Part shown: positions 32,861 to 48,888 of the stretch, one piece after another | Numbering within the stretch: position 1 is the first letter of the stretch | Layout: every line of letters starts with the position of its first letter | Assembly: GCA_963847705.1 (NCBI GenBank) | Contig: CAWKBC010000040.1 | Coordinates: 64,001-128,000, forward strand | Direction of reading: 5' to 3' | Source of the DNA: an uncultured Pseudomonadota bacterium | Lineage (GTDB): Bacteria; Myxococcota_A; Polyangia; Fen-1088 | DNA: 64,000 nt | The notes under the pieces: generated by a model | The model's input: the letters and a program-made list of their open reading frames with translations, nothing else | The model's database searches: none | What the model was told of the DNA's origin: nothing | Made by a program: the position numbers and the translations under genes

Positions 32861-33523
32861 TCAGCGCGTCGCGCTCATGGCCCGCTTGGGCTTCTGGCCG
32901 TAGCCGGCGAATTTCTGCGCCACCGCTTCCATCTCGCGCGCCGAGAGAAGAACCGGCGCGCCGATCGAGCGGGCCACGACGTATTGCGTGCAGAGCGCCT
33001 CGACCTCCTCGGCCAGGAGACGCGCGCCGGGGAGGTCGGCGGCCACCACCACCAGCCCGTGGTTGGCGAGCAGGCAGGCGCGGCGGCCGGTCAGCGCCGC
33101 CAGCGCGTTCTTCGACAGGGCGTCCGTTCCGTAGGTGGCGTAGCGCGCGCAGCGAAGCTCGCGGCCGCCTGTCTTGGCGAGCATGTAGTGGAACGCGGGA
33201 ATCGGACGGCGCAGGCAGGAGAGCGCCGTCGCCACGGTCGAGTGGGTGTGGACGATCGCCCCCACGCCCGGCCGATGCCGGTAGATGTCGCGATGCAGGC
33301 GCCATTCGCTGGACGGCAGCAGGTCGCCGCGCGTCCGGCCGTCGAGCCCGACCTCCACCATGTCGGCCGCGCGCAGCTCGTCGCAGGCGATCCCGGTCGG
33401 CGTCACCAGGAATCCGTCCGAGGCGCGGCAGGAGACGTTTCCCGAGGTGCCGGCGTAGAGGCGGCGCTCGGCCAGCCAGCGCACCGTCTCCAGGATCTGG
33501 CGGCGACGCTTGGTCGAGCTCAC
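32861..33523 (-). CDS. Class II aldolase/adducin family (FucA-like)
   Basis: GTSGNVS, PSSEWRLH, VHTHS, LLANHG. Confidence 0.92.
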   Translation of the reverse strand: MSSTKRRRQILETVRWLAERRLYAGTSGNVSCRASDGFLVTPTGIACDELRAADMVEVGLDGRTRGDLLPSSEWRLHRDIYRHRPGVGAIVHTHSTVATALSCLRRPIPAFHYMLAKTGGRELRCARYATYGTDALSKNALAALTGRRACLLANHGLVVVAADLPGARLLAEEVEALCTQYVVARSIGAPVLLSAREMEAVAQKFAGYGQKPKRAMSATR

Positions 33524-34620
33524 GCGCGCGACCTCGCCGCGTGCTCCGGAAACAGCGCCGCCAGCCCCGCGCGGGTGGCAGGCGCGAGGCCCCGCTCGGT
33601 GATGATGCCGGTGACCAGCCGCGCGGGCGTCACGTCGAAGCCGGGGTTCGCGACCGGCGTCCCCTCGGGCGCCAACCGCACGGTCGCGATCGCGCCTGCC
33701 GTGCCACGCCCGGAGAGCTCGACGACCTCCGCCGCCGCGCGCTCCTCGATCACCACCTCGTGCCCGTCGGCCACCGTCCAGTCGATCGACGACGACGGCG
33801 CCGCGACGTAGAACGGCACCCCGCAGTCGCGCGCCGCCAGCGCCTTCAGGTAGGTCCCGATCTTGTTGACGACGTCCCCGGTGGCGGTGGTGCGATCGGT
33901 GCCGACCAGGACCAGGTCGACCTGCCTGCGCTGCATCAGGTGGCCGCCGGCGTTGTCGACGATCAGCGTGTGGGGGACGCCGTGTTGCCCGAGCTCCCAG
34001 GCGGTCAGCGCCGCGCCCTGGTTGCGCGGCCGCGTCTCGTCGACCCAGACGTGCACCGGCAGGCCCGCGTCGTGGGCCGCGTAGACGCCCGCCAGCGCCG
34101 TCCCGCGATCGACGGTCGCCAGCCAGCCCGCGTTGCAGTGCGTGAGCACGTTGACCGGCGTCCGGGGCGCGCGCGCCGCGGCCAGGCGGCGAATGACCGC
34201 CAGCGCGTGGTCGCCGATCGCCCGGTTCACCGCCACGTCCTCGTCGGCCAGCGCGTCGGCGCGGGCGCGGGCGGCGGCGGCGCGCGCCGCTTGCGGCAAG
34301 GGTGCCAGCGTGGCGGCCATGGTTTCGAGCGCCCAGCGCAGGTTCACGGCGGTCGGCCGGGTGGCCAGCAGCGCCGCGCAGGCGGCCTGCAATCCGTCAT
34401 CAGAGGGATCGACCCGCATGGCCAACCAGACGCCGTACGCCGCCGCCGCTCCGATGAGAGGCGCGCCCCGCACCTGCATGGTGGCGATGGCGCGCGCCAC
34501 CTCGGCAGCGGTTCGCAACGGGCGCACCGTGAAATCGTGGGGCAGCGCCGTCTGATCGATGATCTCGACGACGTCATCGGTCACCCAGATCGTGCGTGTC
34601 GGTTGGCCTCGAACGTTCAT
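33520..34620 (-). CDS. mtnA: S-methyl-5-thioribose-1-phosphate isomerase
   Basis: MQVRGAPLIG, TRPTAVNL, LTHCNAGWLA, DETRPRNQG, NKIGTY, FDVTP. Confidence 0.95.
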   Translation of the reverse strand: MNVRGQPTRTIWVTDDVVEIIDQTALPHDFTVRPLRTAAEVARAIATMQVRGAPLIGAAAAYGVWLAMRVDPSDDGLQAACAALLATRPTAVNLRWALETMAATLAPLPQAARAAAARARADALADEDVAVNRAIGDHALAVIRRLAAARAPRTPVNVLTHCNAGWLATVDRGTALAGVYAAHDAGLPVHVWVDETRPRNQGAALTAWELGQHGVPHTLIVDNAGGHLMQRRQVDLVLVGTDRTTATGDVVNKIGTYLKALAARDCGVPFYVAAPSSSIDWTVADGHEVVIEERAAAEVVELSGRGTAGAIATVRLAPEGTPVANPGFDVTPARLVTGIITERGLAPATRAGLAALFPEHAARSRA

Positions 34621-34675
34621 CGTTGATCGCTCCGCGACCAGGGACGCTATCGCATCTGCCGGCGTCCGCCAGACC

Positions 34676-36646
34676 TCAGAGCGCGATGGCGCGCGGGGCC
34701 TCGCGCGCCTCACGTCGTTCGACGAAGAGCGCGACCTGCTCGACCGGCATCGGCCGACCGAAGTAGTAACCCTGCAGGTAGTCGCAGCCCGAGTCGGCCA
34801 GCCGCGCGGCCTGCTCCGCCGTCTCCACCCCCTCGGCGATCACCCGCAGGCTCATGGTGTGCGCCAGCGCGATGATGGAGTCGACGATGGAGCGGCTGGT
34901 CTCGTCGCGATTCATGTCCTTCACGAACTCGCGATCGATCTTGAGCGCGTCGAGCGGCATGCGCTGCAGCTGGCTGAGCGACGAATAGCCGGTGCCGAAG
35001 TCGTCCATGTAGATGAGGATGCCCATCGCGCGCAGCCGCGCCATGGTCTCGATGGTCTGGGCGGCGTTCTGCATGGCCGCCGTCTCGGTGACCTCCAGGC
35101 GCAGGCTGTGCGGCGCCAGGCCGGTCTCCTCGAGGATCTGGGCGACGTCGTCCACCACGGCCGGCGACACGAACTGCCGGTGGGAGATGTTGACCCCCAC
35201 CGCCATCTGCGCCAGCGCCGGGATCTCGCGCTGCCACCGGCGCAGCTGCAGGCAGGCGTTGGCCAGCACCAGCTTGCCCAGCGGCACGATGAGGCCGGTC
35301 TCCTCGGCGACGGAGATGAACGCGTCGGGCATCACCAGCCCGCGCACCGGGTGGCGCCAGCGCACCAGCGCCTCCAGCGCCGCCAGCCGCCCGGCGCCGT
35401 CGACAATCGGCTGGTAGTGAAGCTCGAACTCGTCGCGCTCGATGGCCCGCCGGAGCTCCGTCTCCGTCGACCAGCGGGTCATGGCGCGCTGGTGCATCTG
35501 CGGGTCGAACACGCAGGTGCAGCTCTTGCCCGCCTGCTTCGCCTGGTAGAGCGCGATGTCCGCGTCGCGCAGCACCTCCTCCGGCCGGGCGTAGCCGCCG
35601 TCGCTGGTGGCGACGCCGATGCTCCCGCGGGCCACCAGATCGTGAGCGCCCAGGTTGAACGGCTCCGCCAGCGCGCTGTGGATGCGCTCGGCCACCCGCA
35701 AGGCGTCCTCGGGCGCGGCCAGATCCTCCAGCAGCATCACGAACTCGTCGCCGCCGATCCGGGCCACGTGATCGCCCGGGATGCGGGCGATGGTGTCGAC
35801 CTTGCGGGCGCAGGCCGAGAGTCGCCGCGCCACCTCGATGAGCAGCTTGTCGCCGATCTGGTGGCCCAGGCTGTCGTTGATGACCTTGAACTCGTCGAGA
35901 TCGATGTAGAGGAGCGCGAACCGGTTGTCGGGATCCCGGTTGCTGCGGGCCAGGCTGTGGGTCAGGCGGTCCGCCAGCAGGCTGCGGTTGGCCAGGCCAG
36001 TGAGCGAATCGTGCAGCGCCTCGAAGCGCAGCTGCTCCTCGGCCAGCTTGCGGTCGGTGATGTTGGTGAGCGAGCCGGCGGCCCGCAGGGTGTCGCGCTC
36101 GGGGTCCTTGACGGCGATGCCCCGGCAGAGCACCCAGCGGTACTGGCCGTCGCGGTGGCGGATGCGAAACTCCGACGACAGGTTCTCCTTGTCCTGACGG
36201 AGGTGCACGTCGATGTCGGCGCGCAGCCGCGGCAGATCGTCGGCGTGGACGCGATCGAGCCATTCGCCGAGCCCGTCGCCGATCTCCGCCTCGTCGTAAC
36301 CCAGCATCGCCTTCCAGCGGGTCGAGTAGTAGACGCGGCCGGTCTCGACGTCCCAGTCCCACAGCCCGTCGTTGGCCCCCTGAGCGGCGAGCGTGTAGCG
36401 GTACTCGGTGCGCTTGCGCTGCTCCACCTCGGCCAGGAGGCGCTCCTGCGTCGCCGCCAGCGTGCGGTTGCGCTCGAACAGCTCGTGCGACGACAGCTCC
36501 ATGGCGCGCTCGACGAGCTGCCGGTCCTGGTCCTGTTGCTGGTAGGCCTCGCTCACCGCCTGCAAGAGACGCTGGAGCTCGGGCCCCGCCTCGCCGCGGA
36601 AATGTTTCCGCAGCTGACGCTCCAGCAGTCTGTGCATGTTCGGCAT
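34676..36646 (-). CDS. PAS-GGDEF-EAL c-di-GMP enzyme
   Basis: PAS (GLWDWD..VHADD), GGDEF intact, EALVRW, DDFGTGYSSL, AEGVET. Confidence 0.95.
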   Translation of the reverse strand: MPNMHRLLERQLRKHFRGEAGPELQRLLQAVSEAYQQQDQDRQLVERAMELSSHELFERNRTLAATQERLLAEVEQRKRTEYRYTLAAQGANDGLWDWDVETGRVYYSTRWKAMLGYDEAEIGDGLGEWLDRVHADDLPRLRADIDVHLRQDKENLSSEFRIRHRDGQYRWVLCRGIAVKDPERDTLRAAGSLTNITDRKLAEEQLRFEALHDSLTGLANRSLLADRLTHSLARSNRDPDNRFALLYIDLDEFKVINDSLGHQIGDKLLIEVARRLSACARKVDTIARIPGDHVARIGGDEFVMLLEDLAAPEDALRVAERIHSALAEPFNLGAHDLVARGSIGVATSDGGYARPEEVLRDADIALYQAKQAGKSCTCVFDPQMHQRAMTRWSTETELRRAIERDEFELHYQPIVDGAGRLAALEALVRWRHPVRGLVMPDAFISVAEETGLIVPLGKLVLANACLQLRRWQREIPALAQMAVGVNISHRQFVSPAVVDDVAQILEETGLAPHSLRLEVTETAAMQNAAQTIETMARLRAMGILIYMDDFGTGYSSLSQLQRMPLDALKIDREFVKDMNRDETSRSIVDSIIALAHTMSLRVIAEGVETAEQAARLADSGCDYLQGYYFGRPMPVEQVALFVERREAREAPRAIAL

Positions 36647-36682
36647 GCTCCTGGGCTCCGGTGTTGCGCGCGGCGGCCGCGC

Positions 36683-37816
36683 CTAGATCTCGCTGAAGAG
36701 GGTGACGGACATCGACTGGTTCTGCAGCGTGCACGGCGCCCCCGGCGCCGCCGGCGAGAGCTCGCCATAGGCGTAGAAGCCGGCGGTGTGGGTCTCCGGA
36801 GCCAGCGCCTCGATCACACCTTCCACCTCTTCCTCGACGCGCTGCTTGAGGAGCTGCTTGCGCCCGACGCAGCTGATCAAGATGCCCAGCTCCGCGGGGA
36901 CGCCGAGCATCTGCTGGCTGGCGCGGCCCGCGGCGCAGGCGCCGTCGACCAGGCGATCGAAGTTCGCGTGCATGAGCCGGACGAAGGACCCTTCCGGCAC
37001 GTCTCCCGCGAAGATCATGCTCTGCGCGCCGTCGTCGATCCCCACCACCGCGCGCGTCACGCTCTCGCCGCTGATCGGATCGCGCACCGTCAGCGGGAAC
37101 AACAGGCCGCTGGCCGGCAGGTTCTTGGCGTGCTCGCCCAGGTACTTTTTGTAAAGCTCCAGCGCGCTCCGCCCGTCCAGCTCGTAGAGCACGTTGCCGG
37201 AGGCGCGGGTGACCAGCCGTTCGGGCCCGAACGGGTCCCACCCGCCCATCGAGCTCCAGCCGACCCGCAGACGATCGCCGTAGAAACCGACCACCACGCT
37301 GCGGCGCTCGGCGACCGAGTCGCCAGCGCAGACAAAGGTGTGGCCGAAGCGCTCGCCGTCGCCCGACCGCCCTCCGGTGGTGGCCACCCCTGCAGGAAGG
37401 GCGGACGACAGGCCGTGAACCAGATCGGTGCCGTTGACGCCGAGGCCGTCCGACAGGACGAAGGTGTGCACCAACCCAGCGTGGGGAATGGCGTTGGCCA
37501 GCTGCCGTCCGGCCGCCAGGCTGTCGCCGCCGCTGTCGATGGTGACCTCGGCGGCCCGCAGCTCGCTCTTCTCCAGCTTGATCGCCGTGACCACCACCGA
37601 ATCATCTCTGACCTCCTTGCCGACGATCTCGCCCGCGGTGGAGCCGCCGCAGACGTAGGCGTTGGGATAGCGGGCGCGAATCTCGGAGAGGCGCGCGGCG
37701 ATCATCGGCCCGGTGGAACCGAACACCAGCGCCAGATCGATCTCGCCGGAGGCGGGACCGCCCGCTTCGTGCGTCCAGCCCGAACCTCGTGACCAGACAG
37801 AGCGATTCGCCTTCAC
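36683..37816 (-). CDS. FIST (NosP-like) sensor protein
   Basis: STAGEI, LSDGLGVNG, GGWDPFGP, ISCVGR, GFYAYGE; GTG at 37816 with a GGAGG Shine-Dalgarno. Confidence 0.92.
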   Translation of the reverse strand: MKANRSVWSRGSGWTHEAGGPASGEIDLALVFGSTGPMIAARLSEIRARYPNAYVCGGSTAGEIVGKEVRDDSVVVTAIKLEKSELRAAEVTIDSGGDSLAAGRQLANAIPHAGLVHTFVLSDGLGVNGTDLVHGLSSALPAGVATTGGRSGDGERFGHTFVCAGDSVAERRSVVVGFYGDRLRVGWSSMGGWDPFGPERLVTRASGNVLYELDGRSALELYKKYLGEHAKNLPASGLLFPLTVRDPISGESVTRAVVGIDDGAQSMIFAGDVPEGSFVRLMHANFDRLVDGACAAGRASQQMLGVPAELGILISCVGRKQLLKQRVEEEVEGVIEALAPETHTAGFYAYGELSPAAPGAPCTLQNQSMSVTLFSEI

Positions 37817-37994
37817 GGAGCTCTCCTCCCCGACACGTATGGTCGACAGACCCACTGTCGGCGGGATTGCGTGCCGGCTTGAGGCCGCCAGGCCCCTTCG
37901 GCGCGTCTCATTGTCACGGCAGCCCCGGCGGCTTTACTCGGCTCCTGCGCTGGGCAACACTGCGGAGCTTCAGGTCCAGGGGGAGGAGGCACGG

Positions 37995-39131
37995 ATGCAA
38001 ACGGCGCAGATGCAATGGCTTCCGCGAGTCGGATGGAGGCCAACTGATTTTTTGGATGCGAAGTGGAAGCCCGACGTGGTCTTCGCCTTCGGGTCCCGCA
38101 ACGTCCTCAACGACGCCGGGTGCATGGACGCCCTGCGCGCGGCCTTTCCCGAGGTCCCGCTCCTCGGATGTTCGACGGCCGGCGAGATCTGCGGGACGAC
38201 GGTGCAAGACGGCACCCTCTCCGTGACGGCGGTGCGATTCGATCACACGCAGCTTCGTTTCGCGCGGGAGGTGGTGTCGGATCGATCGCAAGCGGGCTCG
38301 GCGGCGCGCGCGATCGCCAAGGCGCTCGACCACCAAGAGCTGGTGAGCGTGTTCGTTCTCAGCGACGGCCTCAACGTTCACGGGCCAGATCTCCTGGCCG
38401 GCCTCACCGAGGCCTTTCCGCCGGGCGTCGTGGTCACGGGTGGGATGGCCGCGGACGGCTCCGAGTTTTGTCGGACCCTGGTTCTGTCGGGGCAGGGTGT
38501 CGAGAACAACACGGTGGTCGCGGTGGGGTTCTACGGAACGCGCCTCCAGGTCGGACATGGCACGGGCGGCGGGTGGGATCCCTTCGGCCCCTTTCGTCGC
38601 GTGACGCGGGCCACGGGAAATGTGCTGCACGAGCTCGACGGAAAATCGGCGCTGGCCCTCTACAAGCGGTATCTCGGCGAGCACGCGGCGGGCTTGCCGG
38701 GCTCCGCCTTCTTCTTCCCGCTCTCGGTGAGCCGGACGCGCGACGGGCGGGCCGTGGTGCGCACGGTGATCTCGATCGACGAGGAGGCCCAGACGATGTC
38801 GTTCGGAGGCGACATCCCCGAAGGAGGATACGCGCAGCTCATGCGCGCCAACGTCGACCGGCTGGTGGACGGCGCTCTGGCGGCGGCCCACGCCACCCAG
38901 GAAGGGGGCGCCCAGCAGCCGAGCCTGGCGATGCTGATCAGCTGCTCGGGGCGACGCCTGGTCCTCCGTCAGCGCGTCGAGGACGAGATCGAGGCCGTGC
39001 GCGAGGTGCTGGGCCCCAGCACGACGATTTCGGGATTCTATTCGTACGGTGAATTCGCGCCCAGCTCTCGGGGGGCGAGCTGCGAGCTGCACAATCAAAC
39101 CATGACCCTGGTTACCCTGGCCGAAGTGTAG
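37995..39131 (+). CDS. FIST (NosP-like) sensor protein
   Basis: GCSTAGEI, LSDGLNV, GGWDPFGP, GFYSYGE, CELHNQTMT; GGAGG Shine-Dalgarno. Confidence 0.92.
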   Translation: MQTAQMQWLPRVGWRPTDFLDAKWKPDVVFAFGSRNVLNDAGCMDALRAAFPEVPLLGCSTAGEICGTTVQDGTLSVTAVRFDHTQLRFAREVVSDRSQAGSAARAIAKALDHQELVSVFVLSDGLNVHGPDLLAGLTEAFPPGVVVTGGMAADGSEFCRTLVLSGQGVENNTVVAVGFYGTRLQVGHGTGGGWDPFGPFRRVTRATGNVLHELDGKSALALYKRYLGEHAAGLPGSAFFFPLSVSRTRDGRAVVRTVISIDEEAQTMSFGGDIPEGGYAQLMRANVDRLVDGALAAAHATQEGGAQQPSLAMLISCSGRRLVLRQRVEDEIEAVREVLGPSTTISGFYSYGEFAPSSRGASCELHNQTMTLVTLAEV

Positions 39132-40439
39132 ATGGTGGCGGATTTCCACGCGCTGCTGCGCAGACAGCTTCGCAAGCACTTCGGGAGCGCAGAACCGCTG
39201 GAGTCGATGCGGTCGTTCATCGAAGCGGTGAATGAGGCTTACTTCCAGGCCGACGACGAGCGGATGATGATGGAGAGAGCCTTCGAGCTCTCGTCGCAGG
39301 AGATTCTCGATGCGAACGCCGAGCTCGCCGCCGCGCTGGAGGCGCTTGGACGGGCGGCGGAGCAGAGCGCGGAGGCCAGCCGGGCGAAGGACGAATTCCT
39401 GGCCATGCTGGGCCATGAGCTGCGGAACCCGCTGGCGCCGATCGTGACCACGCTCGATCTGGCGAAGGTCAAGGGTATCCCGACCATCGAAGCCCGAGAC
39501 ATCGAGCGCCCGGTCCGGCAGGTCCTGCGTCTGGTCGACGATCTGCTCGACATCGCTCGCGTGGCGCGCGGCGGGCTGGTGCTGGAGAAGCGTCCTCTCG
39601 AGCTGGCTCTGGTCGTTCGCAATGCGGTGGGGGCGATCCGTCCAGCGGTGTTGCAGCGAGGGCATCTTCTTCGCGTCGAGGTCCCCGAGGAGGGCCTGGT
39701 CGTGGACGGCGACGAGGCGCGGCTGACCCAGGTCGTGACCAACCTTCTGATTAATTCTGTGCGTTACACCGAGACGGGCGGCGCGATCACCATCGCGGCC
39801 TGGCGGGACGGCGAGGAGGCGGTCCTGCAGGTCCGCGACAACGGTCAGGGGATCGAGGCCGAGAGGCTGCCGCACATCTTCGATTCGTTCGGGAAGGCGC
39901 GCCCTCCGGGGGGCTCCGGGCTCGGCCTCGGGCTGACCATCGTGCACAACTTGATGGAGCTCCACGGCGGAACTGCGACGGCCCAGAGCGACGGACCCGG
40001 GAAGGGCGCGACGTTCGAGGTTCGCCTGAAGACCTTCGCCGCGCCGGTGCGGGCAGAGCCGGTCCCCCCCAGGCCACCGCCCGCGGTGCGGAGACGCAGA
40101 ATCCTCATCGTCGACGACAACCGCGAGGCGGCCAACCTCATCGGTGAGGCCCTGAGGCTCTCGGGGCATGAGGTGGCGCTCGCCTACCAGGCGGACGAGG
40201 CGTTGCTCCGCGTCGAGCGCTTCACGCCCGACGTGGCCTTGCTCGACGTCGGGCTGGCCGGTATGAGCGGCCACGATCTGGGCGAGGAGCTGCGGCTGCG
40301 AAACGCCACGCTGAAGCTCGTCGCCATCACGGGCTACGGCCAGCCGTCCGATCGTGAGGCGAGCCGGCGGGCCGGTTTCGCCGCCCACCTGGTCAAGCCG
40401 GTGGGCCTCAGGGAGCTGCTGGAGGTCATCAGCGGCTGA
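39132..40439 (+). CDS. Hybrid histidine kinase (HisKA-HATPase-REC)
   Basis: LGHELRNPL, NLLIN, DNGQGI, GLGLGL; REC LIVDDN..LLDVGL..LVKP. Confidence 0.93.
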   Translation: MVADFHALLRRQLRKHFGSAEPLESMRSFIEAVNEAYFQADDERMMMERAFELSSQEILDANAELAAALEALGRAAEQSAEASRAKDEFLAMLGHELRNPLAPIVTTLDLAKVKGIPTIEARDIERPVRQVLRLVDDLLDIARVARGGLVLEKRPLELALVVRNAVGAIRPAVLQRGHLLRVEVPEEGLVVDGDEARLTQVVTNLLINSVRYTETGGAITIAAWRDGEEAVLQVRDNGQGIEAERLPHIFDSFGKARPPGGSGLGLGLTIVHNLMELHGGTATAQSDGPGKGATFEVRLKTFAAPVRAEPVPPRPPPAVRRRRILIVDDNREAANLIGEALRLSGHEVALAYQADEALLRVERFTPDVALLDVGLAGMSGHDLGEELRLRNATLKLVAITGYGQPSDREASRRAGFAAHLVKPVGLRELLEVISG

Positions 40440-40521: not shown

Positions 40522-41349
40522 TCAGCCGTACTGGACCGCCGAGACGCGCGCGCTCATCAGGTCTTCGTTGAAGGTGATGCGTCCGGTGTCGTCGCCCGCG
40601 GCGCCCGCCACGACCATCAGGGGGATGAGGTGCTCTTCGCGCGGGTGTGCGTGCCGGGCGCCCGGCGCCGAGGTCCAATCCGCCAGCCGGCGCGCGCGGG
40701 TCTCGGGGGCGGCCGTGGCCGCCTCCTTGAGCCAGGCGTCGAAGATCAGCGAGGCCTGATGCGCCGTCGTCGTTCCGAAGTCGCGCATGTTGTGGTAGCT
40801 CATCCCGCTGCCGAGGATGAGCACCCCCTCGTCGCGCAGCGGCGCCAGCGCCCGCCCGATCTCCAGGTGCTCGCGCGGATCGAGCCCCGCCTTCAGCGAG
40901 AGCTGGATCGTCGGCACGTCGGCCTCGGGCCAGGAGAGCTTGAACGGCACGAAACAGCCGTGGTCGAACCCCCGGCGCGCGTCGGTCTTCGCGGGGATGC
41001 CCGCGTCGCCGAGAAGCTGCACCACACGTTCGGCGAGCGCCGGGCTCCCGGGCGCGGGCCAGGTGATCGTGTACGCCTCGGGCGGAAAGCCGCCGTAGTC
41101 GTAGTACATCGGCGGCTGCGGCGACGTCATGACGGTCGGCGCGCTCGCCTCCCAGTGGGCCGAGACGACGAGCAGGGCCTTCGGCGGCGCCGGAAGCTGC
41201 TCCGGCAGCTTCACGAAGTAATCGCGCAAGGCCGCGACGTCTCGGGCGGGCATGAAGCCACCCATGTCGACGAAGGGCCACGGGCCGCCCCCGTGCGGGA
41301 CGTACACGACCGGCTGGCGCACGCGGGTGGGTTCGATTCGGTCGCTCAT
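40522..41349 (-). CDS. Class III extradiol dioxygenase (LigB/DODA-type)
   Basis: HGGGP, SAHWE, YDYGGFP, GFDHG, GSGMSYHN, AHPREEHLIPL. Confidence 0.93.
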   Translation of the reverse strand: MSDRIEPTRVRQPVVYVPHGGGPWPFVDMGGFMPARDVAALRDYFVKLPEQLPAPPKALLVVSAHWEASAPTVMTSPQPPMYYDYGGFPPEAYTITWPAPGSPALAERVVQLLGDAGIPAKTDARRGFDHGCFVPFKLSWPEADVPTIQLSLKAGLDPREHLEIGRALAPLRDEGVLILGSGMSYHNMRDFGTTTAHQASLIFDAWLKEAATAAPETRARRLADWTSAPGARHAHPREEHLIPLMVVAGAAGDDTGRITFNEDLMSARVSAVQYG

Positions 41350-41466
41350 GGCTGCTTCACGTTGGATACCAGGACGCGCGAAAGGTCACGGCCTTTCGCG
41401 ATCTGAAGCGCAGCCGTCATCGCCACGCTCGTGCCACGCTGGGGCCACGCCGGGGCCAAGCTCGGG

Positions 41467-42111
41467 CTAGGGGCGAATCTGCGGGCCCTCGGGCCCCCTT
41501 TGCAGCGCCCGCCCCCGCAACGATCGGTCGACCATGACCTGGAAGATGCCCAGCAGCGCCTCGCGCGCGGCGGGCCCCTGCGCACCTTCGAGCAGGCCGA
41601 GCGCCTCCGCGATCGCCTCCATCGTGGAGAGGCGCCGGGCATCCAGCGTCCTGCGGAGCCGGTACTCGGACGGCGCGTCGCGCGTGACGAACGCGCAAGG
41701 CACGTCGCTCAGACCCGCGAGGCGCCGCCGCACGCGCTGCGCCTGCCTCCAGGTCCCGTCGGGAACGATCAAGGTCACCGGCCTCGGGCCGCCACAGAAG
41801 TCCGCCAGCGGGCGCGCGTCCGGATGGGGGAACAACACGACGGGGTCGCCGTGCTCGGCCCAGGCCGGCACCGCCTGCGGCTGGTCAGGCGCCCCACGGA
41901 TGACGGCGTCGCTGTTGGGGAGGCATCGCAGCGCGAGCCGACCGGTGTTGCTGGGCTTCTGCGTCTCGGCGTGGTGGAGCACGACCAGGACCCGGGTGCG
42001 CGTCTCGACGCGGGGGACCAGATCGCAGAGGCAAGCGGTGACCAGCAGCCGGCAGCCCGGACAGCGGTGTCCCACCAGCCCCTCGACCATCCGGTTGCCG
42101 GGGTTGCGCAT
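41467..42111 (-). CDS. DTW domain tRNA-uridine aminocarboxypropyltransferase (TapT-like)
   Basis: RCPGC..CLC, KPSNTG, DGTWRQA, LSTMEA. Confidence 0.88.
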   Translation of the reverse strand: MRNPGNRMVEGLVGHRCPGCRLLVTACLCDLVPRVETRTRVLVVLHHAETQKPSNTGRLALRCLPNSDAVIRGAPDQPQAVPAWAEHGDPVVLFPHPDARPLADFCGGPRPVTLIVPDGTWRQAQRVRRRLAGLSDVPCAFVTRDAPSEYRLRRTLDARRLSTMEAIAEALGLLEGAQGPAAREALLGIFQVMVDRSLRGRALQRGPEGPQIRP

Positions 42112-42124
42112 CAGCGCCCGCCGC

Positions 42125-42667
42125 TCATTCCCCGAGGCTGTGCCGGACGATCGGCGTCTCGAGACTGACGTCACCGCTCGTCACGTACAGCGTCCCGTCG
42201 TTGCGCGACAGTGACCAGCGCGCGTTGCGGTCGGTGGCCGCGTCGAGCGCGTCGAGAAAGGCGCCCTCCAGCGGGTAGACCTCGATGCTCTCCGCCTTGT
42301 GAATCGGCTTCGCGCGCGCCCCCTTCTGCAGCGCCGCGACGTCGCCGTGCGTGAACACCACCACCCGGGGCGACGCCTTGCTCGCCTTGTGCAGGCGCTC
42401 GGGCGAGGGGGTCCCCACCTCCAGCCACAGGCGAAGACTGCCTTGCATGTCCCTCGCCCAGACCGCGGGCTCATCGGTGCTGGAGAGGCCCTTCGAGAAC
42501 GCGATCCCCGGCTCGTGGCAGAGGCAGTACCCGATCACGCGGGTCAGCAGGTACCGCATCGTCTCGGACGGATGCCGCGCCACCCGCAGGTCGAGCGCCT
42601 CGTAGACGCCACGGTCGACGTCCGAGAGCTCAATTTGGAGGTGATAGACCGTCGCCGACAGAGCCAT
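42125..42667 (-). CDS. yaeQ: YaeQ family protein
   Basis: MALSATVY..LSDVDRG, ARHPSET, GLSSTDEP, WLEVGTP. Confidence 0.92.
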   Translation of the reverse strand: MALSATVYHLQIELSDVDRGVYEALDLRVARHPSETMRYLLTRVIGYCLCHEPGIAFSKGLSSTDEPAVWARDMQGSLRLWLEVGTPSPERLHKASKASPRVVVFTHGDVAALQKGARAKPIHKAESIEVYPLEGAFLDALDAATDRNARWSLSRNDGTLYVTSGDVSLETPIVRHSLGE

Positions 42668-42802
42668 CCGCGCGGACACTACTACCGATCGCACCCTCGG
42701 GCGCGATCGTCTCTCGTTCGTGGTTCAACCCGCCATCGGCTCCTACTGTGGCGCCCGGATCGACGCACGGGGTGGCGCACTCGACGGGGGCAAGCGTCGT
42801 AC

Positions 42803-44596
42803 TCAGTCGGTCGGCGGCGTGTTCGTGAGCGCGATCGTCGCGTCGTCGAGGAACAGGTCCGGACACTCGATTTGTCCCGACCCGGTGCCGCAAGTCCCTT
42901 GGTCCGCCTGGGTCACCCAGAGCGCCGCTCCGGTCATCTGACAGCCTTTGGGCGCGTCGGAGGGCGGGAAGGCGACAGCGCCGCTGCTCAGTGGCGCCCA
43001 ACTTCCGGTCGGGAGGGCCGCGGTTTGGGTGATCGCTTTCGTGCGGACGCTGCCGGAAGGATCACCCTTGCAGCTGTAGGCCGCCCACAGCTGGATGGCA
43101 TGGGACGTCACCCCCGATTGCATGACGTAGAAGGTGACGGCGTAGTCCGCGGCGCCGATCGGCAACGCATACCTCATCGCCGTGATCGAGAGCGACCGAT
43201 TGTGCTCCCAAAGGCTGTTCTTGCCGCCGTTGTGTTGGGCCGTGCTCACGCTGAGCGTCGCCGAGCCCATACTGTTCGTGCTCCACCCGTCGACATACCC
43301 CCCCGTGGCCTCGAAGTTCGGATTGCCGACGAGGTTGTGACCGTCGGTGACCGTCACGACCAGGTCGTCGACGTATAAATTGGGAAATGCCGTCGTGCCG
43401 GCGACCGGGTTGTCACCCGCATCCTCGTTGAGGAAGACCACGGCGTTCCTCACCAGACCGGGCAGGATTCCACTGGTCTTCGGCATCGCGAAGCAGTCCG
43501 ACATCACGGCCGGGTCCATGGTGAGGTCGATGGTCGCGGTGAAGTTCACCCAGGTCCCCGAGGGCATCAGCGCCGCAGTGCTGCCAGCGTAGTAATAGTT
43601 GACACCCTGCGCACACATGAGGCGGAGCTGGAGAAGGGCGCTCGGGGGCGTGCCCGCCTGGTCTTGCATGGCCCACAAGCTGATGTTGTAGGTCCCGATT
43701 CCCGTCGGGACGTAGTAGCCAGGGCCGATGTAGCTCGCCGACCGGCTCGTCTGCTCGGCTGAGTACAGGCCAGCGTGGACAGGCGTGGAGGTCACGGAAA
43801 GCCCGCCGCCGCTGGGAATCGTGGACCATCCGTCGGAGGTGCCGTACTCGAGATCGCCGTTGCCCGCCAGGTTGGGGTTCGTCCCGACGCAGGTCCCCGC
43901 AGCGCAGAATCCGCCTGTAATGCAAGCCGTGCCGTCGGTGCAACTGGTCAGGCAAGCGTTCGACTGACAGAGGAAACCGTTGCAGCTCACCGGGGAGCTC
44001 GGATTGCATCGGCCCGTTCCATTGCAAACGGAACCGTTGATCACGGAATCCGCCGTGCTCGAGCAGGTCGTGGCCTGAGAGCAGGACGTGAGAGCCGGCC
44101 AGAGCAGGCACGCCCCGCTGCCGTTGCACCCCGCGCCACTGACACCGCACGTACTCTTGTCCGTCGCGGGGCAGTCGCCGCGCGGATCCAGCTGGCTGGC
44201 AACGGGGATGCAGCTGTTGCCGGTGCTGTCGCAGGTCTGGCAGGTCCCTGAGCAATCCATGTTGCAACAGAACCCGCTCATGCAGCTGCCCTGTTTGCAG
44301 TCCGCGCCGCTCTGGCAGCGGTCGCCGTACATGCCCGTCGGCGCCTGTCCCCCGGCCCCGCTCTGCCCCGCCGCGCCACCGGCCATGCCGCCGCTCCCCT
44401 GGTTGCCGGCGCCACCCAAGCCGCCGGTCCCCACGCTCCCCCCCCGGCCACCGATCCCGGTTCCGTTGCCACCGTTCCCCATTCCGCCGCTGCCGGTCAC
44501 GAGGCCGTTGCCCCCGAGACCCGCCGCCGCGTCGCGCGCATGGAACGCTTCCTCGCCCTTGCACCCGACGGCGGCGAGCGCGACGAGCGACGCCAA
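42803..44596 (-). CDS. Cys-rich lipoprotein with two CBM4/9-like modules; start uncertain
   Basis: AAVGC lipobox, Gly linker, Cys repeats, NLAGNGDLE and NLVGNPNFE module starts, YVDDL/FLDDA ends. Confidence 0.8.
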   Translation of the reverse strand: MASLVALAAVGCKGEEAFHARDAAAGLGGNGLVTGSGGMGNGGNGTGIGGRGGSVGTGGLGGAGNQGSGGMAGGAAGQSGAGGQAPTGMYGDRCQSGADCKQGSCMSGFCCNMDCSGTCQTCDSTGNSCIPVASQLDPRGDCPATDKSTCGVSGAGCNGSGACLLWPALTSCSQATTCSSTADSVINGSVCNGTGRCNPSSPVSCNGFLCQSNACLTSCTDGTACITGGFCAAGTCVGTNPNLAGNGDLEYGTSDGWSTIPSGGGLSVTSTPVHAGLYSAEQTSRSASYIGPGYYVPTGIGTYNISLWAMQDQAGTPPSALLQLRLMCAQGVNYYYAGSTAALMPSGTWVNFTATIDLTMDPAVMSDCFAMPKTSGILPGLVRNAVVFLNEDAGDNPVAGTTAFPNLYVDDLVVTVTDGHNLVGNPNFEATGGYVDGWSTNSMGSATLSVSTAQHNGGKNSLWEHNRSLSITAMRYALPIGAADYAVTFYVMQSGVTSHAIQLWAAYSCKGDPSGSVRTKAITQTAALPTGSWAPLSSGAVAFPPSDAPKGCQMTGAALWVTQADQGTCGTGSGQIECPDLFLDDATIALTNTPPTD

Positions 44597-44654
44597 TACC
44601 AGCAGCCCCGCCCCCCGAGACGAATCGGGGCGGGGCGACCGGTGGGTCAGTCAA

Positions 44655-47429
44655 TCAAGGAGCGAGCGTGATGGAGGCATCGTCGACGTAGATATCCGGG
44701 CACTCGACCTGCCCCGCCCCGGTTCCGCAGGTTGAACCGTCCTGCTGGATGTAGACGCCCGCGGCGGCCAGCTGGCAGCCCGCCGGCGCGTTCGCGGGCG
44801 GGAAGGTGACGCTGCCGGAGAGCAGGTTCCAGGTGCCCCCGGTGACCTGCGACGCGATGGCGATCTGACCGGGGAACTGCTGCGACCCGCCCTGGCAGGT
44901 GTACACCGGCTGCAGAATCAGATCTCGCGGCACCGAGCCGGTGTGCAAGGCGTAGAAGGAGACGTTGTACTTGGCGACGCCGATCGGCAAGTTCCACTTG
45001 GGGCCCTGGTAGGTCTGCGTCCTGGTCGTATCGACCATGCTGTTGGTCCCACCATGGGCCTGAGCCGTGGTGATCGCCAGCGAGCCGCCGGTTTGCGACC
45101 AGCCAGCCGTCGTGCCGGCCTCGAAGTTCGGGTTGCCGATCAGGTTGTGCCCGTCGGTGACCGTCACGACCAGGTCGTCGATGAACAGATTGGGGAAGGC
45201 CGTCGGCGCCTCGGTTCCCGTCTGATTGAGATAGGCCATCACGGAGTCGACCACGCCCCCCGTCTTGGTTGGGTCGCACCCCGTGATCGTCGTGAGGTCG
45301 ACGGTTCCGGTGATCTTGGTCCACGTCCCTGAGGGGAGCGAGACGCCGTAGCCCCCGACCGCGGGGTAGTTTGCAACGCCGGGCGACCCGCAGTTGAGGC
45401 CGAGCTGGATCACCCCCGACGCGAAGGTCGGGTCGGTGTTCTGCATGGCCCAGGCGGTGATGTTGTACTTCCCAGCCCCGGTCGGGAGCGCGTAGGCCGG
45501 CCCCTGGTAATTCAAGGTTCGCGTGGTGTCGGCCAGGCTGTACGTGCCGCCGTGGACGAGGCCCGCGCCGGTCTCGATCGCCAGCGTGCCGCCGCCGTTC
45601 GTCGACCAACCCGTGGTGGCGTTGTACTCGAGGTCGCCGTTGCCCGCCAGGTTCACGGGCGTGACGCTGTTGTTGGCGACGCAGACCCCGGCGCTGCAGA
45701 ACCCGCTGTTGCAATCGGTGTCGAGGGTGCAGCTGGTCTTGCAAGTCGGGCCGCTGGCGCTGCACTGGTAGGTGCCGCAGGAGCTGGGCACGCCGGCGGC
45801 GCAGGTCCCCGCGCCGTCGCAGGTGGGCACCGGAAGCAGCGTGGCGCCCGTGCAGGCGGCCACGCCGCAGGTGGTCCCGGCGGCCCACTTGCGGCAGGCA
45901 CCGGCGCCGTCGCAGAAGCCGTCGTGACCGCAGGAGGTGGCCGGGTCGGCCGTGCAGTCGTTGTGCACGTCGGTCCCGGAGACGGCGGGGGTGCACTGCC
46001 CGAGGGTCCCCACACCGCCGCAGGTCACGCAGGTCCCGTTGCAGATACTGTCGCAGCAGACCCCGTCGACGCAGAAGCCGCTCTGGCAAGCATCGGCCCC
46101 ACCGCAGGCGGTGCCGTTCGCCTCTTGCGCCGTGCAGACACCGGCCGAGCAGAAGTACCCGGTCGTGCAGTCGGTGTCTGCGGTGCAAGTCGTCGCGCAG
46201 GACGTCGTGCCGCACATGTACGGGGCGCAGGACGCGGTGGTGGCCGTCAGGCAGGTGCCGGCGCCGTCACAGAGCCGGGGCTGCGTGTCGGTCGAACCGC
46301 TGCAGGATTCGTTGCTGCAACCGGTGCCGGCCGCGTAGAGCCGACAGGCACCGGCGCCGTCACAGGTGCCGTCGTGGCCGCAGGAGGTGGTGGGATCCGT
46401 CGCGCATTCGCTGTCGGGATCCGTCCCCGCGGTGATCGGACGACAGAGGCCGTCGGCCGCGCCGGTCTTGGCGCTCGCGCAGGCGTTGCAGAGGCTCCCG
46501 CAGGCCGATTCGCAGCAGACGCCGTCGACGCAGTCGCCGCTCGCGCACTGGCTCGCCGCGGAGCAGGTGGCGCCGTTGGCCTGCGGAGCGATGCAGTGGC
46601 CCGCCGACGAGCAGAAGGTGCTGCTCGAGCAGTCGGCGTTCGAGAGGCAGGAGGTCTTGCAGGAGGTGGCCCCGCAGACGTAGTTGCCGCACGATGCGGT
46701 GGTCGCCGCTCGGCAGGTCCCCGTGCCGTCGCAGGTCTGGGCCGACGTGTCCGTCGCGCCGCTGCACGATTCGGAGGTGCCGCAGGTCGTGCCGATGATC
46801 CACTTGCGGCAGGCCCCGGCCCCGTCGCACATGCCGTCGAATCCGCAGCTGGTTTGCGTCTCCGCCGCGCACTCGTTGTCGGGATCGCTCCCGGCGGTGA
46901 CAGGACGGCAGAGACCGTCGGCCGCGCCGGTCTTGGCGCTCGCGCAGGCGTTGCAGAGGCCCGCGCAGGCCGTCTCACAGCAGACGCCGTCGACACAAAA
47001 ACCACTGAGACAATCCGTGGCCGCGTTGCAGAGGCCGCCGTTGCCGCCGTCCGGACGACCGTCGCTCCCCGCGTCCGTCGGGCCAGAGTCGGCCGCGGCA
47101 TCCAGGCCCGCCGCGCCGCCCACGCCGGCGATGCCGCCCGCGCCGCCGCTGCCGGTCAGGCCCGCCGCGCCGCCCGCCCCCGAGACACCGCCCGTGCCGC
47201 CGGTGGCGACCGCTCCGGCCGCGCCGCCGGCTCCCACCGCGCCACCGGCGCCGGTTCCCCCCGTGCCGACGGCGCCGCCGCCCGTGCCGCCGGTGCCGAG
47301 CTTGCCGGCTTCGCCGGCCCCCCCCTCACCGGTGCCCCCGCTACCGCCACCGCCGCAAGCCACCATGACGAAGATGGACGCCAGGGCCAAGAGACGGACC
47401 CCCCGCGCTTGAAAGCTGAGATTGGCCAT
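44655..47429 (-). CDS. Large Cys-repeat lipoprotein with two CBM4/9-like modules (paralog of 42803-44596)
   Basis: VMVAC lipobox; three CxSGxCVDGVCC...CDGAGAC repeats; NLAGNGDLE and NLIGNPNFE modules. Confidence 0.85.
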   Translation of the reverse strand: MANLSFQARGVRLLALASIFVMVACGGGGSGGTGEGGAGEAGKLGTGGTGGGAVGTGGTGAGGAVGAGGAAGAVATGGTGGVSGAGGAAGLTGSGGAGGIAGVGGAAGLDAAADSGPTDAGSDGRPDGGNGGLCNAATDCLSGFCVDGVCCETACAGLCNACASAKTGAADGLCRPVTAGSDPDNECAAETQTSCGFDGMCDGAGACRKWIIGTTCGTSESCSGATDTSAQTCDGTGTCRAATTASCGNYVCGATSCKTSCLSNADCSSSTFCSSAGHCIAPQANGATCSAASQCASGDCVDGVCCESACGSLCNACASAKTGAADGLCRPITAGTDPDSECATDPTTSCGHDGTCDGAGACRLYAAGTGCSNESCSGSTDTQPRLCDGAGTCLTATTASCAPYMCGTTSCATTCTADTDCTTGYFCSAGVCTAQEANGTACGGADACQSGFCVDGVCCDSICNGTCVTCGGVGTLGQCTPAVSGTDVHNDCTADPATSCGHDGFCDGAGACRKWAAGTTCGVAACTGATLLPVPTCDGAGTCAAGVPSSCGTYQCSASGPTCKTSCTLDTDCNSGFCSAGVCVANNSVTPVNLAGNGDLEYNATTGWSTNGGGTLAIETGAGLVHGGTYSLADTTRTLNYQGPAYALPTGAGKYNITAWAMQNTDPTFASGVIQLGLNCGSPGVANYPAVGGYGVSLPSGTWTKITGTVDLTTITGCDPTKTGGVVDSVMAYLNQTGTEAPTAFPNLFIDDLVVTVTDGHNLIGNPNFEAGTTAGWSQTGGSLAITTAQAHGGTNSMVDTTRTQTYQGPKWNLPIGVAKYNVSFYALHTGSVPRDLILQPVYTCQGGSQQFPGQIAIASQVTGGTWNLLSGSVTFPPANAPAGCQLAAAGVYIQQDGSTCGTGAGQVECPDIYVDDASITLAP

Positions 47430-47495
47430 GCCTTCCATTCTCGTCCTCCTTGGCGACCGGCGCCAAAACGTTGTCAACGACCCGCCAACATTCTC

Positions 47496-48888
47496 CTAAA
47501 GACCTAGAAATGCCTCCAGAACGCCCGCGTAAGCAGGCTTGGGAACGTAATTATCGTCGAACAGCAAAGGTTGAGGAGCGGCGCAGCTAACACCATTGAG
47601 CCACGAATACTTGTCCGGCACGCCCCAGACCGTCACCGCCAGGCAGAGCGGCTCGGCCGCACACACGGCCACGAGGTCGTGAAACCTCGTTTTCTGGGTG
47701 TTCACGTCGCCCGCGCACAGCTGTACATCCATCTCGCTGATCACGACATTGAGCCCGATGGCCTCCAGCCGCTCCATGTTGGCCGCGACCTGAGCGGCCG
47801 ACGGCGATGTATCGGCGGGTCCGGTGTGCATCTGAAGCCCGACGCCGTTGATGGGAACGCCGCGCGCCAGCATCCCCTTCACCATGTTGTAGACGTAATC
47901 GGACTTCGCCCCGGCCCCTTCGGCGCCGTAGTCATTATAGAGAAGCAGCGCGCCCGGGTCGGCCGCGTGGGCCGCGTTGAAAGCATCGTCGATGTAACCG
48001 GCGCCAAGGTATTGGTAAAAGATCGAGTTGCGGAGCGACTGGCCGTCATCCGCCACTGCCTCGTTGACGACATCCCAGGCAATCACCTGCCCACGGTAGT
48101 GCGAGACGACCTGGGTCACGTGGTTGATCATCGCCGCGTGAAGCGCGGTCGCATCCGTGATGGCAGAGACCCAGTCCGGCAGCTGGGAGTGCCAGACCAG
48201 CGTGTGTCCCTTCACCTTCATCCCGTTCTGCTGGGCGAAGGCGGTGATCGCGTCGCCGCCTCCGAACGTGAACACGTTCTGGGTGGGTTCGGTGGCGTCC
48301 CACTTCATCTCGTTCTCGGGGGTGGCGAAGTCGAACGCGGCGGCGGCGGTCGCGGCGTAGGCCGCCTCCGACAGATGAGACGCCCCGATGGCAGCACCAA
48401 TCAGACGTCCAGTCCGCGCGGCGGCAGTCTTGAGCGTCATCGCCTGGCCCGCGTCGATCGAATCCATCGCCGGCGGCGGCGTCGGCTCCGCCTGAAGCGC
48501 CTGCACTGCCTCTGCCTCCTGCACTGCCTGCAGCGCCTGCACGGCCTCCGCCGCCCGCGCTGCCTGCGGAGCCTCCGCCGCCCGCGTCCACGCCGCCCGC
48601 GTCCACGCCGCCCGCTCGGCCTCCGCCGCCCGCGCTGCCTGCACGGCCTCCGCTGCCGGCGTCCACACCGCCCTCACGCCCCGCACCACCGCTGCCGCCA
48701 TCCAGTCGACCACCTCCTGCGCCGCCCGCCACGCCCCCACCGGTCCCGCCGACGACGGCGTCGTCGCGGCGGCACGCGGCGGCGCTCAGGATCATGAGAC
48801 TGGCGAACGTGCGGAGCGCCGGCACGCAGCGACGCTGAACGCAACGATTGGGAAGGCGTTTCGAAAAGCGACGCGCGGCGGGGTTCAT
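47496..48888 (-). pseudogene. GH10 endo-1,4-beta-xylanase with a 1-nt frameshift between the lipoprotein/linker part and the catalytic domain
   Basis: TPENEMKW, GHTLVWHSQ, WDVVNE, GVGLQMH, ISEMD intact; signal SAAAC and Gly linker lie in another frame; removing one T at ~48461 restores ...GDGSIDAG... Confidence 0.8.

Follow-up and report, generated by a model that had tools for sequence, protein, structure and literature searches.

How does a sensor that stands alone on its own polypeptide reach the enzyme under its control? For stand-alone FIST sensors this step is described as little understood (PMC8846402), and the question is raised by a 64,000-nucleotide stretch of DNA (the window; positions 64,001 to 128,000 of contig CAWKBC010000040.1, assembly GCA_963847705.1) from an uncultured bacterium of the Polyangia. 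At 34676-40439 the window holds two divergent two-gene cassettes, in each of which a FIST gene precedes its output gene. An earlier note on this DNA had described two FIST paralogs, one followed by a PAS-GGDEF-EAL protein and the other by a hybrid kinase, and open reading frames (ORFs) and Pfam matches confirmed all four genes. It had also proposed that both outputs begin with a portable FIST-docking domain. We found that the two outputs do share a helical N-terminal segment of ~62 amino acids, here called the module, and comparison across genomes indicates that it probably serves as an input domain on which the product of the preceding FIST gene docks.

36683..37816, minus strand: FIST1, a stand-alone FIST plus FIST_C protein of 377 aa from the module-associated clade (Pfam PF08495, E 8e-46, and PF10442)
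34676..36646, minus strand: output 1, a module-PAS-GGDEF-EAL protein of 656 aa, or 653 aa from the likely start at 36637 (Pfam)
36452..36637, minus strand: module copy 1, residues 4-65 of output 1 (alignment and profile)
37995..39131, plus strand: FIST2, a stand-alone FIST plus FIST_C protein of 378 aa from the same clade as FIST1 (Pfam, clade profile and AlphaFold2)
39132..40439, plus strand: output 2, a module-HisKA-HATPase_c-REC hybrid kinase of 435 aa (Pfam)
39144..39329, plus strand: module copy 2, residues 5-66 of output 2 (alignment and AlphaFold2)

A module shared by two otherwise dissimilar outputs

The N-termini of outputs 1 and 2 agree at 29 of 58 positions (50%; E 2e-16), the motifs quoted in the earlier note stand in both translations, and the two proteins are alike only over their first ~62 residues. 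When the 71,975 six-frame ORFs of the 6.1-Mb genome (85% complete) were searched with a module profile, just two copies were found, the next match lying at E 0.28, and an improved profile reproduced that count. Because the gap between the two copies and the next match is so sharp, the module is not a chance resemblance. A Pfam search found no sensor domain in the output 2 kinase, as the earlier note had said.

The suspicion that the module belongs to no named domain was also borne out in Pfam, NCBIfam and the PDB. Pfam gave no match above its cut-off, the best for the first member being EAD1 at 18.4 bits versus 24.2, and no Pfam family matched more than 3 of the 22 sequences that make up the module family profile. 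Nothing in NCBIfam came close to any cut-off, and no PDB sequence matched the profile below E 0.02. Full-text literature searches returned no description of the module, with most subscription papers outside their scope and a mention in unseen supplements possible. The 22-sequence profile matched 5,027 clusters at 50% identity, with E values up to 0.001. Among the best 150 module proteins, the match begins no more than 15 residues from the N-terminus in 145, and FIST is present in none. Together with the linkage described below, these comparisons point to a real, widespread and apparently unnamed input domain that is tied to one FIST clade.

Modeled as a monomer with AlphaFold2, copy 2 has a short helix at residues 7-17, a variable loop and a long helix at residues 24-79 that runs toward HisKA (predicted local distance difference test [pLDDT], 94). 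Foldseek found no specific PDB match to this model and VIA-align only generic coiled coils (best Z 5.6); the absence of a fold match does not establish a new fold. The best-conserved positions (Leu9, Arg11, Gln12, Tyr37, Arg49, Ser55 and Glu57) are mostly polar, which would be unusual for a plain coiled coil. A form of the module in Pseudomonadota carries an in-frame insert of ~23 residues in the loop between the two helices (11 of 151 modules; L145-L164, L393 and P0292), and one such module is borne by plasmid AZO_p5 of Azospirillum lipoferum 4B. In addition, a 114-residue protein encoded after a clade FIST (L067:6144-6485) contains nothing but the module and a coiled coil and could act as an adaptor or decoy.

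A long helix with generic coiled-coil matches might instead be a dimerization or signaling-helix spacer that hitch-hikes through DNA linkage to the FIST gene without ever contacting FIST, an explanation that we consider quite unlikely. It draws on residues 48-50, which among 164 sequences read ERS in 86 and ERA in 16 (102/164 for either), close to the ERT signature of the S-helix (PMC1592074). However, ERT itself occurs in only 5/164, and a separate true S-helix motif follows the module in 11/164. Furthermore, S-helices are flanked by a domain on either side, whereas the module opens its protein and is preceded by none.

The module accompanies one clade of FIST

Linkage was examined from both ends. 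GTDB was scanned with the FIST alignment only, the best 80 of 593 confirmed loci were kept, and these were scored with a module profile built earlier from Myxococcota only. The module headed the gene directly downstream of the clade FIST in 73 of the 80 loci, with gaps of -3 to 103 nt; the rest were three loci where the module gene precedes a long FIST fusion, two contig ends and two loci with no module. At least 16 phyla are represented among these 80 loci, one Thermoplasmatota archaeon among them. In the metagenomes, where 80 of 184 loci were scored, the module lay within 250 nt in 76 and at ~256 nt in 1, two loci ran into a contig end and one had none, giving 77 of 78 scorable loci.

For the reverse direction, samples of genomes were searched with the module profile; only the best-scoring matches became loci, and weaker ones are under-sampled. 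In Pseudomonadota (62 module matches in 49/301 genomes, 30 loci) a clade FIST lay directly upstream in 28 of 29 new modules, and the same proportion, 28 of 29, was found in Bacteroidota (38 matches in 34/251 genomes, 30 loci). Cyanobacteriota gave 18 matches in 15/201 genomes, with FIST upstream of 7 of 8 full-length modules, a count that excludes the seed and one repeated training locus. Overall, 63 of 66 new full-length modules have a clade FIST directly upstream. The enrichment beside FIST genes that the earlier note had put forward as a check on its proposal thus holds in both directions.

The linkage is specific. From the 150 FIST matches listed in Myxococcota, we took the 40 best-scoring ones not already linked to a module. 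Of these, 37 belong to other clades (at most 178 bits on the clade profile), and none of the 37 has the module; the other three were two clade members without an adjacent module and one clade fusion with a module upstream. The module was likewise found in 0 of 30 NosP-type loci, 19 of which score above the NosP cut-off. Across the Myxococcota genomes, FIST occurred in 106/201 and the module in only 24. From the earlier proposal of a portable FIST-linked input module, the linkage stands, together with the output variety, co-divergence and fusions described below, but the tie to FIST and NosP proteins in general does not, being confined to one clade.

Since FIST and module genes are often 0-20 nt apart, it could be argued that conservation acts at the RNA level, through translational coupling or a regulatory element across the FIST stop codon, and that the peptide is incidental. 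We hold this to be very improbable. Amino acids are conserved over about 60 codons in AT-rich and GC-rich genomes, the gaps vary from overlap to about 250 nt, the 23-residue loop insert is in frame, and the module is retained within fused proteins.

Outputs vary behind the module

Among 75 module proteins, 48 are histidine kinases, 14 carry GGDEF (with or without EAL, and one with HD) and 6 carry SpoIIE; the remaining 7 had no called output at the threshold used, and some of these are truncated. STAS and serine/threonine (Ser/Thr) kinase outputs were also seen behind the module. On a FastTree phylogeny of 164 dereplicated FISTs, the output class changes 21 times among 139 labeled rows, versus a mean of 23.4 when labels were shuffled, and 12 of 200 shuffles gave 21 changes or fewer. 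The closeness of these values implies that outputs have been swapped almost at random.

Co-divergence was assessed by identity correlations over 93 kinase pairs. The module correlated with the separate FIST at a rho of 0.64 (0.60 after the ATPase and guanine-plus-cytosine [GC] contributions were removed) and with the ATPase domain of its own chain at 0.26 (0.15 after correction). The 64 residues after the module gave 0.17, though they are poorly aligned, and 64-column windows of FIST correlated with the rest of FIST at 0.62-0.78. Because the module-FIST value is near that of FIST windows and above that of its own ATPase, the module evolves like part of FIST. Linkage of the DNA contributes to this pattern, but the junction with the output falls after the module and not before it.

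Fusions were sought among 7,995 scored candidates, which yielded 56 long relatives of the clade FIST. In all six that join an N-terminal FIST to a called catalytic output (two Ser/Thr kinases, three histidine kinases and one GGDEF-EAL protein), the module is kept in between.

These results bear on a second alternative, in which the module is no passive dock but a split-off piece of the sensor that completes the ligand or cofactor site of FIST through residues such as His6 and Tyr37. A module that diverges at the pace of FIST's own pieces would fit such a co-sensor, as would the order of FIST then module in the fusions and the conservation of Tyr37 (97%) and His6 (78%). However, the AlphaFold2 model of FIST2 is a complete, confident fold on its own (pLDDT 95.5), and position 6 is often Asn (15%). 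We therefore regard a co-sensor as unlikely and favor docking.

A variant with reversed gene order occurs in Myxococcota, where a module-SpoIIE phosphatase gene stands before a gene for a large protein with one to four tandem clade FISTs. A hydrophobic stretch and STAS-like segments are also present in these large proteins, many of which have a PDZ domain; the STAS-like label rests on a reading of the sequence and one source name. The variant looks like a partner-switching system.

L072:1221-8387, L092:3546-8597, L104:2647-10115 and L264:4836-10749 (proteins P0238-P0288): reversed-order Myxococcota variant

Weighing the docking reading

Several observations weigh against docking. In Myxococcota, which are mostly training loci, FIST lay directly upstream in only 17 of 27 module matches; the other 10 were one contig end, one module with a FIST fusion downstream and eight with no FIST within 1.5 kb, of which one is a half-module and one is probably spurious. 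Cyanobacterial half-modules, which have no second half, had FIST upstream in 0 of 8 cases, so that with half-modules included the count of new modules with a clade FIST directly upstream becomes 63 of 74. Among 15 genomes whose module had no adjacent FIST, a clade FIST was present elsewhere in only 2 (G139 and G205). The 13 without one hold six half-modules, a module at a contig end of a fragmentary genome and six fuller modules (in G100, G192 and G090, which are 97-98% complete, and in G372, G703 and G894). Of 15 key residues, such orphan modules retain 5-13, generally fewer than the mean of 12.5 in FIST-adjacent modules, although the latter built the profile. That they persist at all would suit a spacer. 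Clade FISTs without an adjacent module were found at L064, L066, L225, L263 and L362 and on one Legionella plasmid. The sampled genomes are not independent of one another, and gene linkage by itself also makes neighbors co-diverge. Linkers are short (7-34 aa) in four of the six fusions, which may reflect lost stop codons or assembly errors, and the other 50 long FIST relatives, seven kinase-then-FIST fusions among them, have no module. Lastly, mutual information between FIST and module residues in 150 pairs gave a top Z of 4.7, within the shuffled range of 4.0-5.6; this test was underpowered, and covariation at shuffle level is also what a spacer would produce.

Given the orphan modules and the clade FISTs without a module, the link between the two is strong yet not obligatory. 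Hitch-hiking by linkage would nevertheless leave unexplained why, in at least 16 phyla, the junction lies after the module and not between the two genes, and why the polar residues Gln12 and Glu57 are near invariant. With these points on both sides, we judge the comparative support for docking, drawn from sequences, to be strong.

Two groups of exceptions are described here in their own right. The Legionella plasmid (L394, NZ_CP011106.1) is conjugative and carries a clade FIST of 502 bits, as do seven other Legionella plasmid records; no module gene was found in the stretch examined. In L200-L207 and L127, the module of a large protein is reduced to its first half and no FIST lies upstream; a clade FIST is absent from all five cyanobacterial genomes of this kind that were checked. 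Few independent events stand behind these half-module proteins, but they may point to the second half as the contact surface.

Proposed mechanism

In the docking reading, FIST and the module would together make a receptor of two chains, one that nearly any dimeric signaling output could carry. The long helices of two modules would pair in a parallel coiled coil that continues toward HisKA or PAS. FIST, with a small ligand or cofactor bound, would contact the first helix and the conserved polar segment from Tyr37 to Glu57. A ligand-dependent change in FIST would then shift the coiled coil and switch kinase, cyclic di-GMP (c-di-GMP) or phosphatase activity, with kinase inhibition the most likely direction of control by analogy with NosP. 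Recombination behind the module would swap the output while FIST and module stay together, giving rise to new systems, and the cassettes in the window would be two such independent units that ended up back to back.

The module thus offers a short, concrete candidate contact site for FIST in a large clade that spans at least 16 phyla, including an archaeon. If the reading is right, an input would be assigned to kinases, c-di-GMP enzymes and phosphatases that number in the thousands and seem to have no sensor, and a 62-residue tag that places an enzyme under a separate sensor would be a useful part for synthetic biology.

The FIST clade is distinct from NosP

FIST1 scores 511 bits on the clade FIST profile. 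On the NosP model NF041558, the two FISTs of the window score 53 and 57.2 bits versus an equivalog cut-off of 450 and therefore should not be called NosP, although they share with it the stand-alone FIST plus FIST_C build. The partner kinase in the window scores 118 bits on the NahK/ErcS-type model NF041832, for which the cut-off is 400. Cys59, Cys317, Cys363 and His366 are conserved in the module-associated clade. No PDB sequence matched the clade profile below E 0.08. By structure, the FIST2 model best matched the FIST domain of FBXO22 (PDB 8ua3; E 1.5e-11, template modeling [TM] score about 0.5, 14% identity), which has a three-repeat fold (PMC11185555); chorismatases and cyanuric acid hydrolases were weaker matches.

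Partners of NosP-type FISTs begin with a different conserved coiled coil, and a profile comparison of the NahK-type N-terminus with the module detected no homology (probability 8%). Three further FIST groups each have their own N-terminal helical motif, seen by eye in four to five partners apiece. The loci of all these other-clade partners are L363-L392, L211, L213, L222, L226-L262, L395 and L396. These distinct motifs suggest clade-specific plugs, and the module finding raises a parallel question for NosP systems. Extending this, each FIST clade might dock on its own N-terminal helical module (the present one, the coiled coil of NosP partners and at least three others) in a plug-and-socket code, with a receptor that could be grafted onto any dimeric output and with the N-terminus of NahK and NosK as the NosP binding site. 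We offer this generalization tentatively, as a serious possibility that we would lean slightly against.

The back-to-back layout and its surroundings

The earlier note had drawn attention to the mirror-image arrangement of twin systems. FIST1 and FIST2 are 47% identical, which equals the median over all FIST pairs in the set and makes them as alike as FISTs from different phyla. Trees place them apart, with an approximately unbiased (AU) test that does not reject joining them (p 0.29). Given this identity and these trees, a recent duplication of twin cassettes is unsupported. Among 40 genomes of the family, G986 has cassette 1 only and G975 and G982 have cassette 2 only, at sites that are not syntenic with the window, which rules out a conserved twin design. 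In the metagenomes, the twin layout recurs in 3 contigs at 88-95% FIST1 identity, and a second FIST was found in 0 of 10 contigs at 80-82% FIST1 identity, some of which have little upstream sequence. With either cassette occurring alone elsewhere and the FISTs only 47% identical, the mirror image is a lineage-specific, local meeting of two independent mobile cassettes. The layout helped in spotting the module and supplies a natural pair for a comparison of cross-talk.

A fourth metagenome contig (L284:1-1900) has lost nearly all of FIST2 through an internal deletion and kept the module kinase, leaving one FIST and two modules; it has also gained, between the cassettes, what we take to be a PASTA-like gene. 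This case comes from a single contig and could be an assembly error.

The remaining features of the cassettes are as follows.

36074..36334, minus strand: PAS_3 domain, residues 105-191 of output 1 (Pfam)
35522..36019, minus strand: GGDEF domain, residues 210-375 of output 1 (Pfam)
34751..35458, minus strand: EAL domain, residues 397-632 of output 1 (Pfam)
37817..37994, no strand: divergent intergenic region of 178 bp with a ribosome site at either end (sequence scan)
39384..40430, plus strand: HisKA (85-144), HATPase_c (193-300) and REC (324-433) domains of output 2 (Pfam)

FIST1 probably starts at a GTG behind a GGAGGAG ribosome site, and in output 1 the spacing of the ribosome site favors the ATG at 36637. 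The first base of output 2, 39132, is the base directly 3' of the FIST2 stop codon. The 178-bp intergenic region yielded neither a sigma-70-like promoter match nor a terminator. Output 1 carries GGDEF, EAL and DDFGTG motifs. Just before GGDEF (35760-35825), a repeat of ~8 residues, shared by 47 of 47 close homologues, lies between the RxxD motif and GGDEF. Presumably it is extra relative to the standard spacing, and it may change the c-di-GMP feedback site. Close homologues of both outputs carry Polyangia labels.

In the genome of the window, three FIST genes were counted against two modules. The remaining FIST (G000:C21:326678-327856; L001) is distant, belongs to another clade and has no module; its neighborhood includes a PspA-like gene and integrase- and relaxase-like ORFs, so labeled from a reading of the ORFs. 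The cassettes are flanked on the left (32861-34713) by class II aldolase and IF-2B family genes, likely of methionine salvage, and on the right (40522-42694) by LigB dioxygenase, DTW and YaeQ genes, none of which accompany the cassettes in G986, G975 or G982. Farther right, 42803-48740 encodes two long secreted-looking proteins with what we take to be cysteine-rich repeats and a possible glycoside hydrolase.

Comparison with known systems

The cassettes fit the general pattern of FIST accessory sensors, in which a stand-alone FIST is co-oriented and closely coupled with a soluble signaling protein. The nearest relatives are the NosP-kinase systems. In Burkholderia pseudomallei, two-hybrid tests show that NosP binds the kinase NosK, whose autophosphorylation it inhibits, and about 130 residues at the N-terminus of NosK have no assigned role (PMC12570481). 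NosP-NahK-NarR of Legionella pneumophila is a further such system (reviewed in PMC8846402). As in the window, a stand-alone FIST plus FIST_C protein is encoded directly before a soluble kinase without a recognized sensor. The window FISTs differ in belonging to another clade and in partners headed by the module instead of the NosP-type coiled coil. In addition, no response-regulator gene follows in the window, and module outputs directly include GGDEF/EAL, SpoIIE, STAS and Ser/Thr kinase proteins. The earlier note had taken regulation of both co-encoded kinases and c-di-GMP enzymes in trans as established for FIST and NosP proteins. In the accessible text of the review, this is so for kinases, whereas the route to c-di-GMP enzymes runs via a kinase relay or a fused FIST, and direct control in trans of a GGDEF-EAL protein is not established (PMC8846402).

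H-NOX (HNOB) proteins are likewise a small accessory sensor family that controls HnoK kinases and GGDEF/EAL enzymes in trans (PMC8846402), with a sensor fold unrelated to FIST. The S-helix resembles the module as a helix with an E-R-S/T signature before kinase, GGDEF and PP2C outputs, but it is about 40 residues long and internal (PMC1592074). The module has an extra first helix and loop, is N-terminal, is mostly without ERT and is tied to a neighboring gene, being internal only in the six FIST fusions. In FBXO22, the FIST domain serves as a protein-binding platform for a dimeric partner (PDB 8ua3; PMC11185555), as we propose here, although FBXO22 is a eukaryotic ubiquitin-ligase adaptor that binds a BTB dimer. 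Against these systems, the module is a new domain within a known accessory-sensor design rather than a new kind of signaling.

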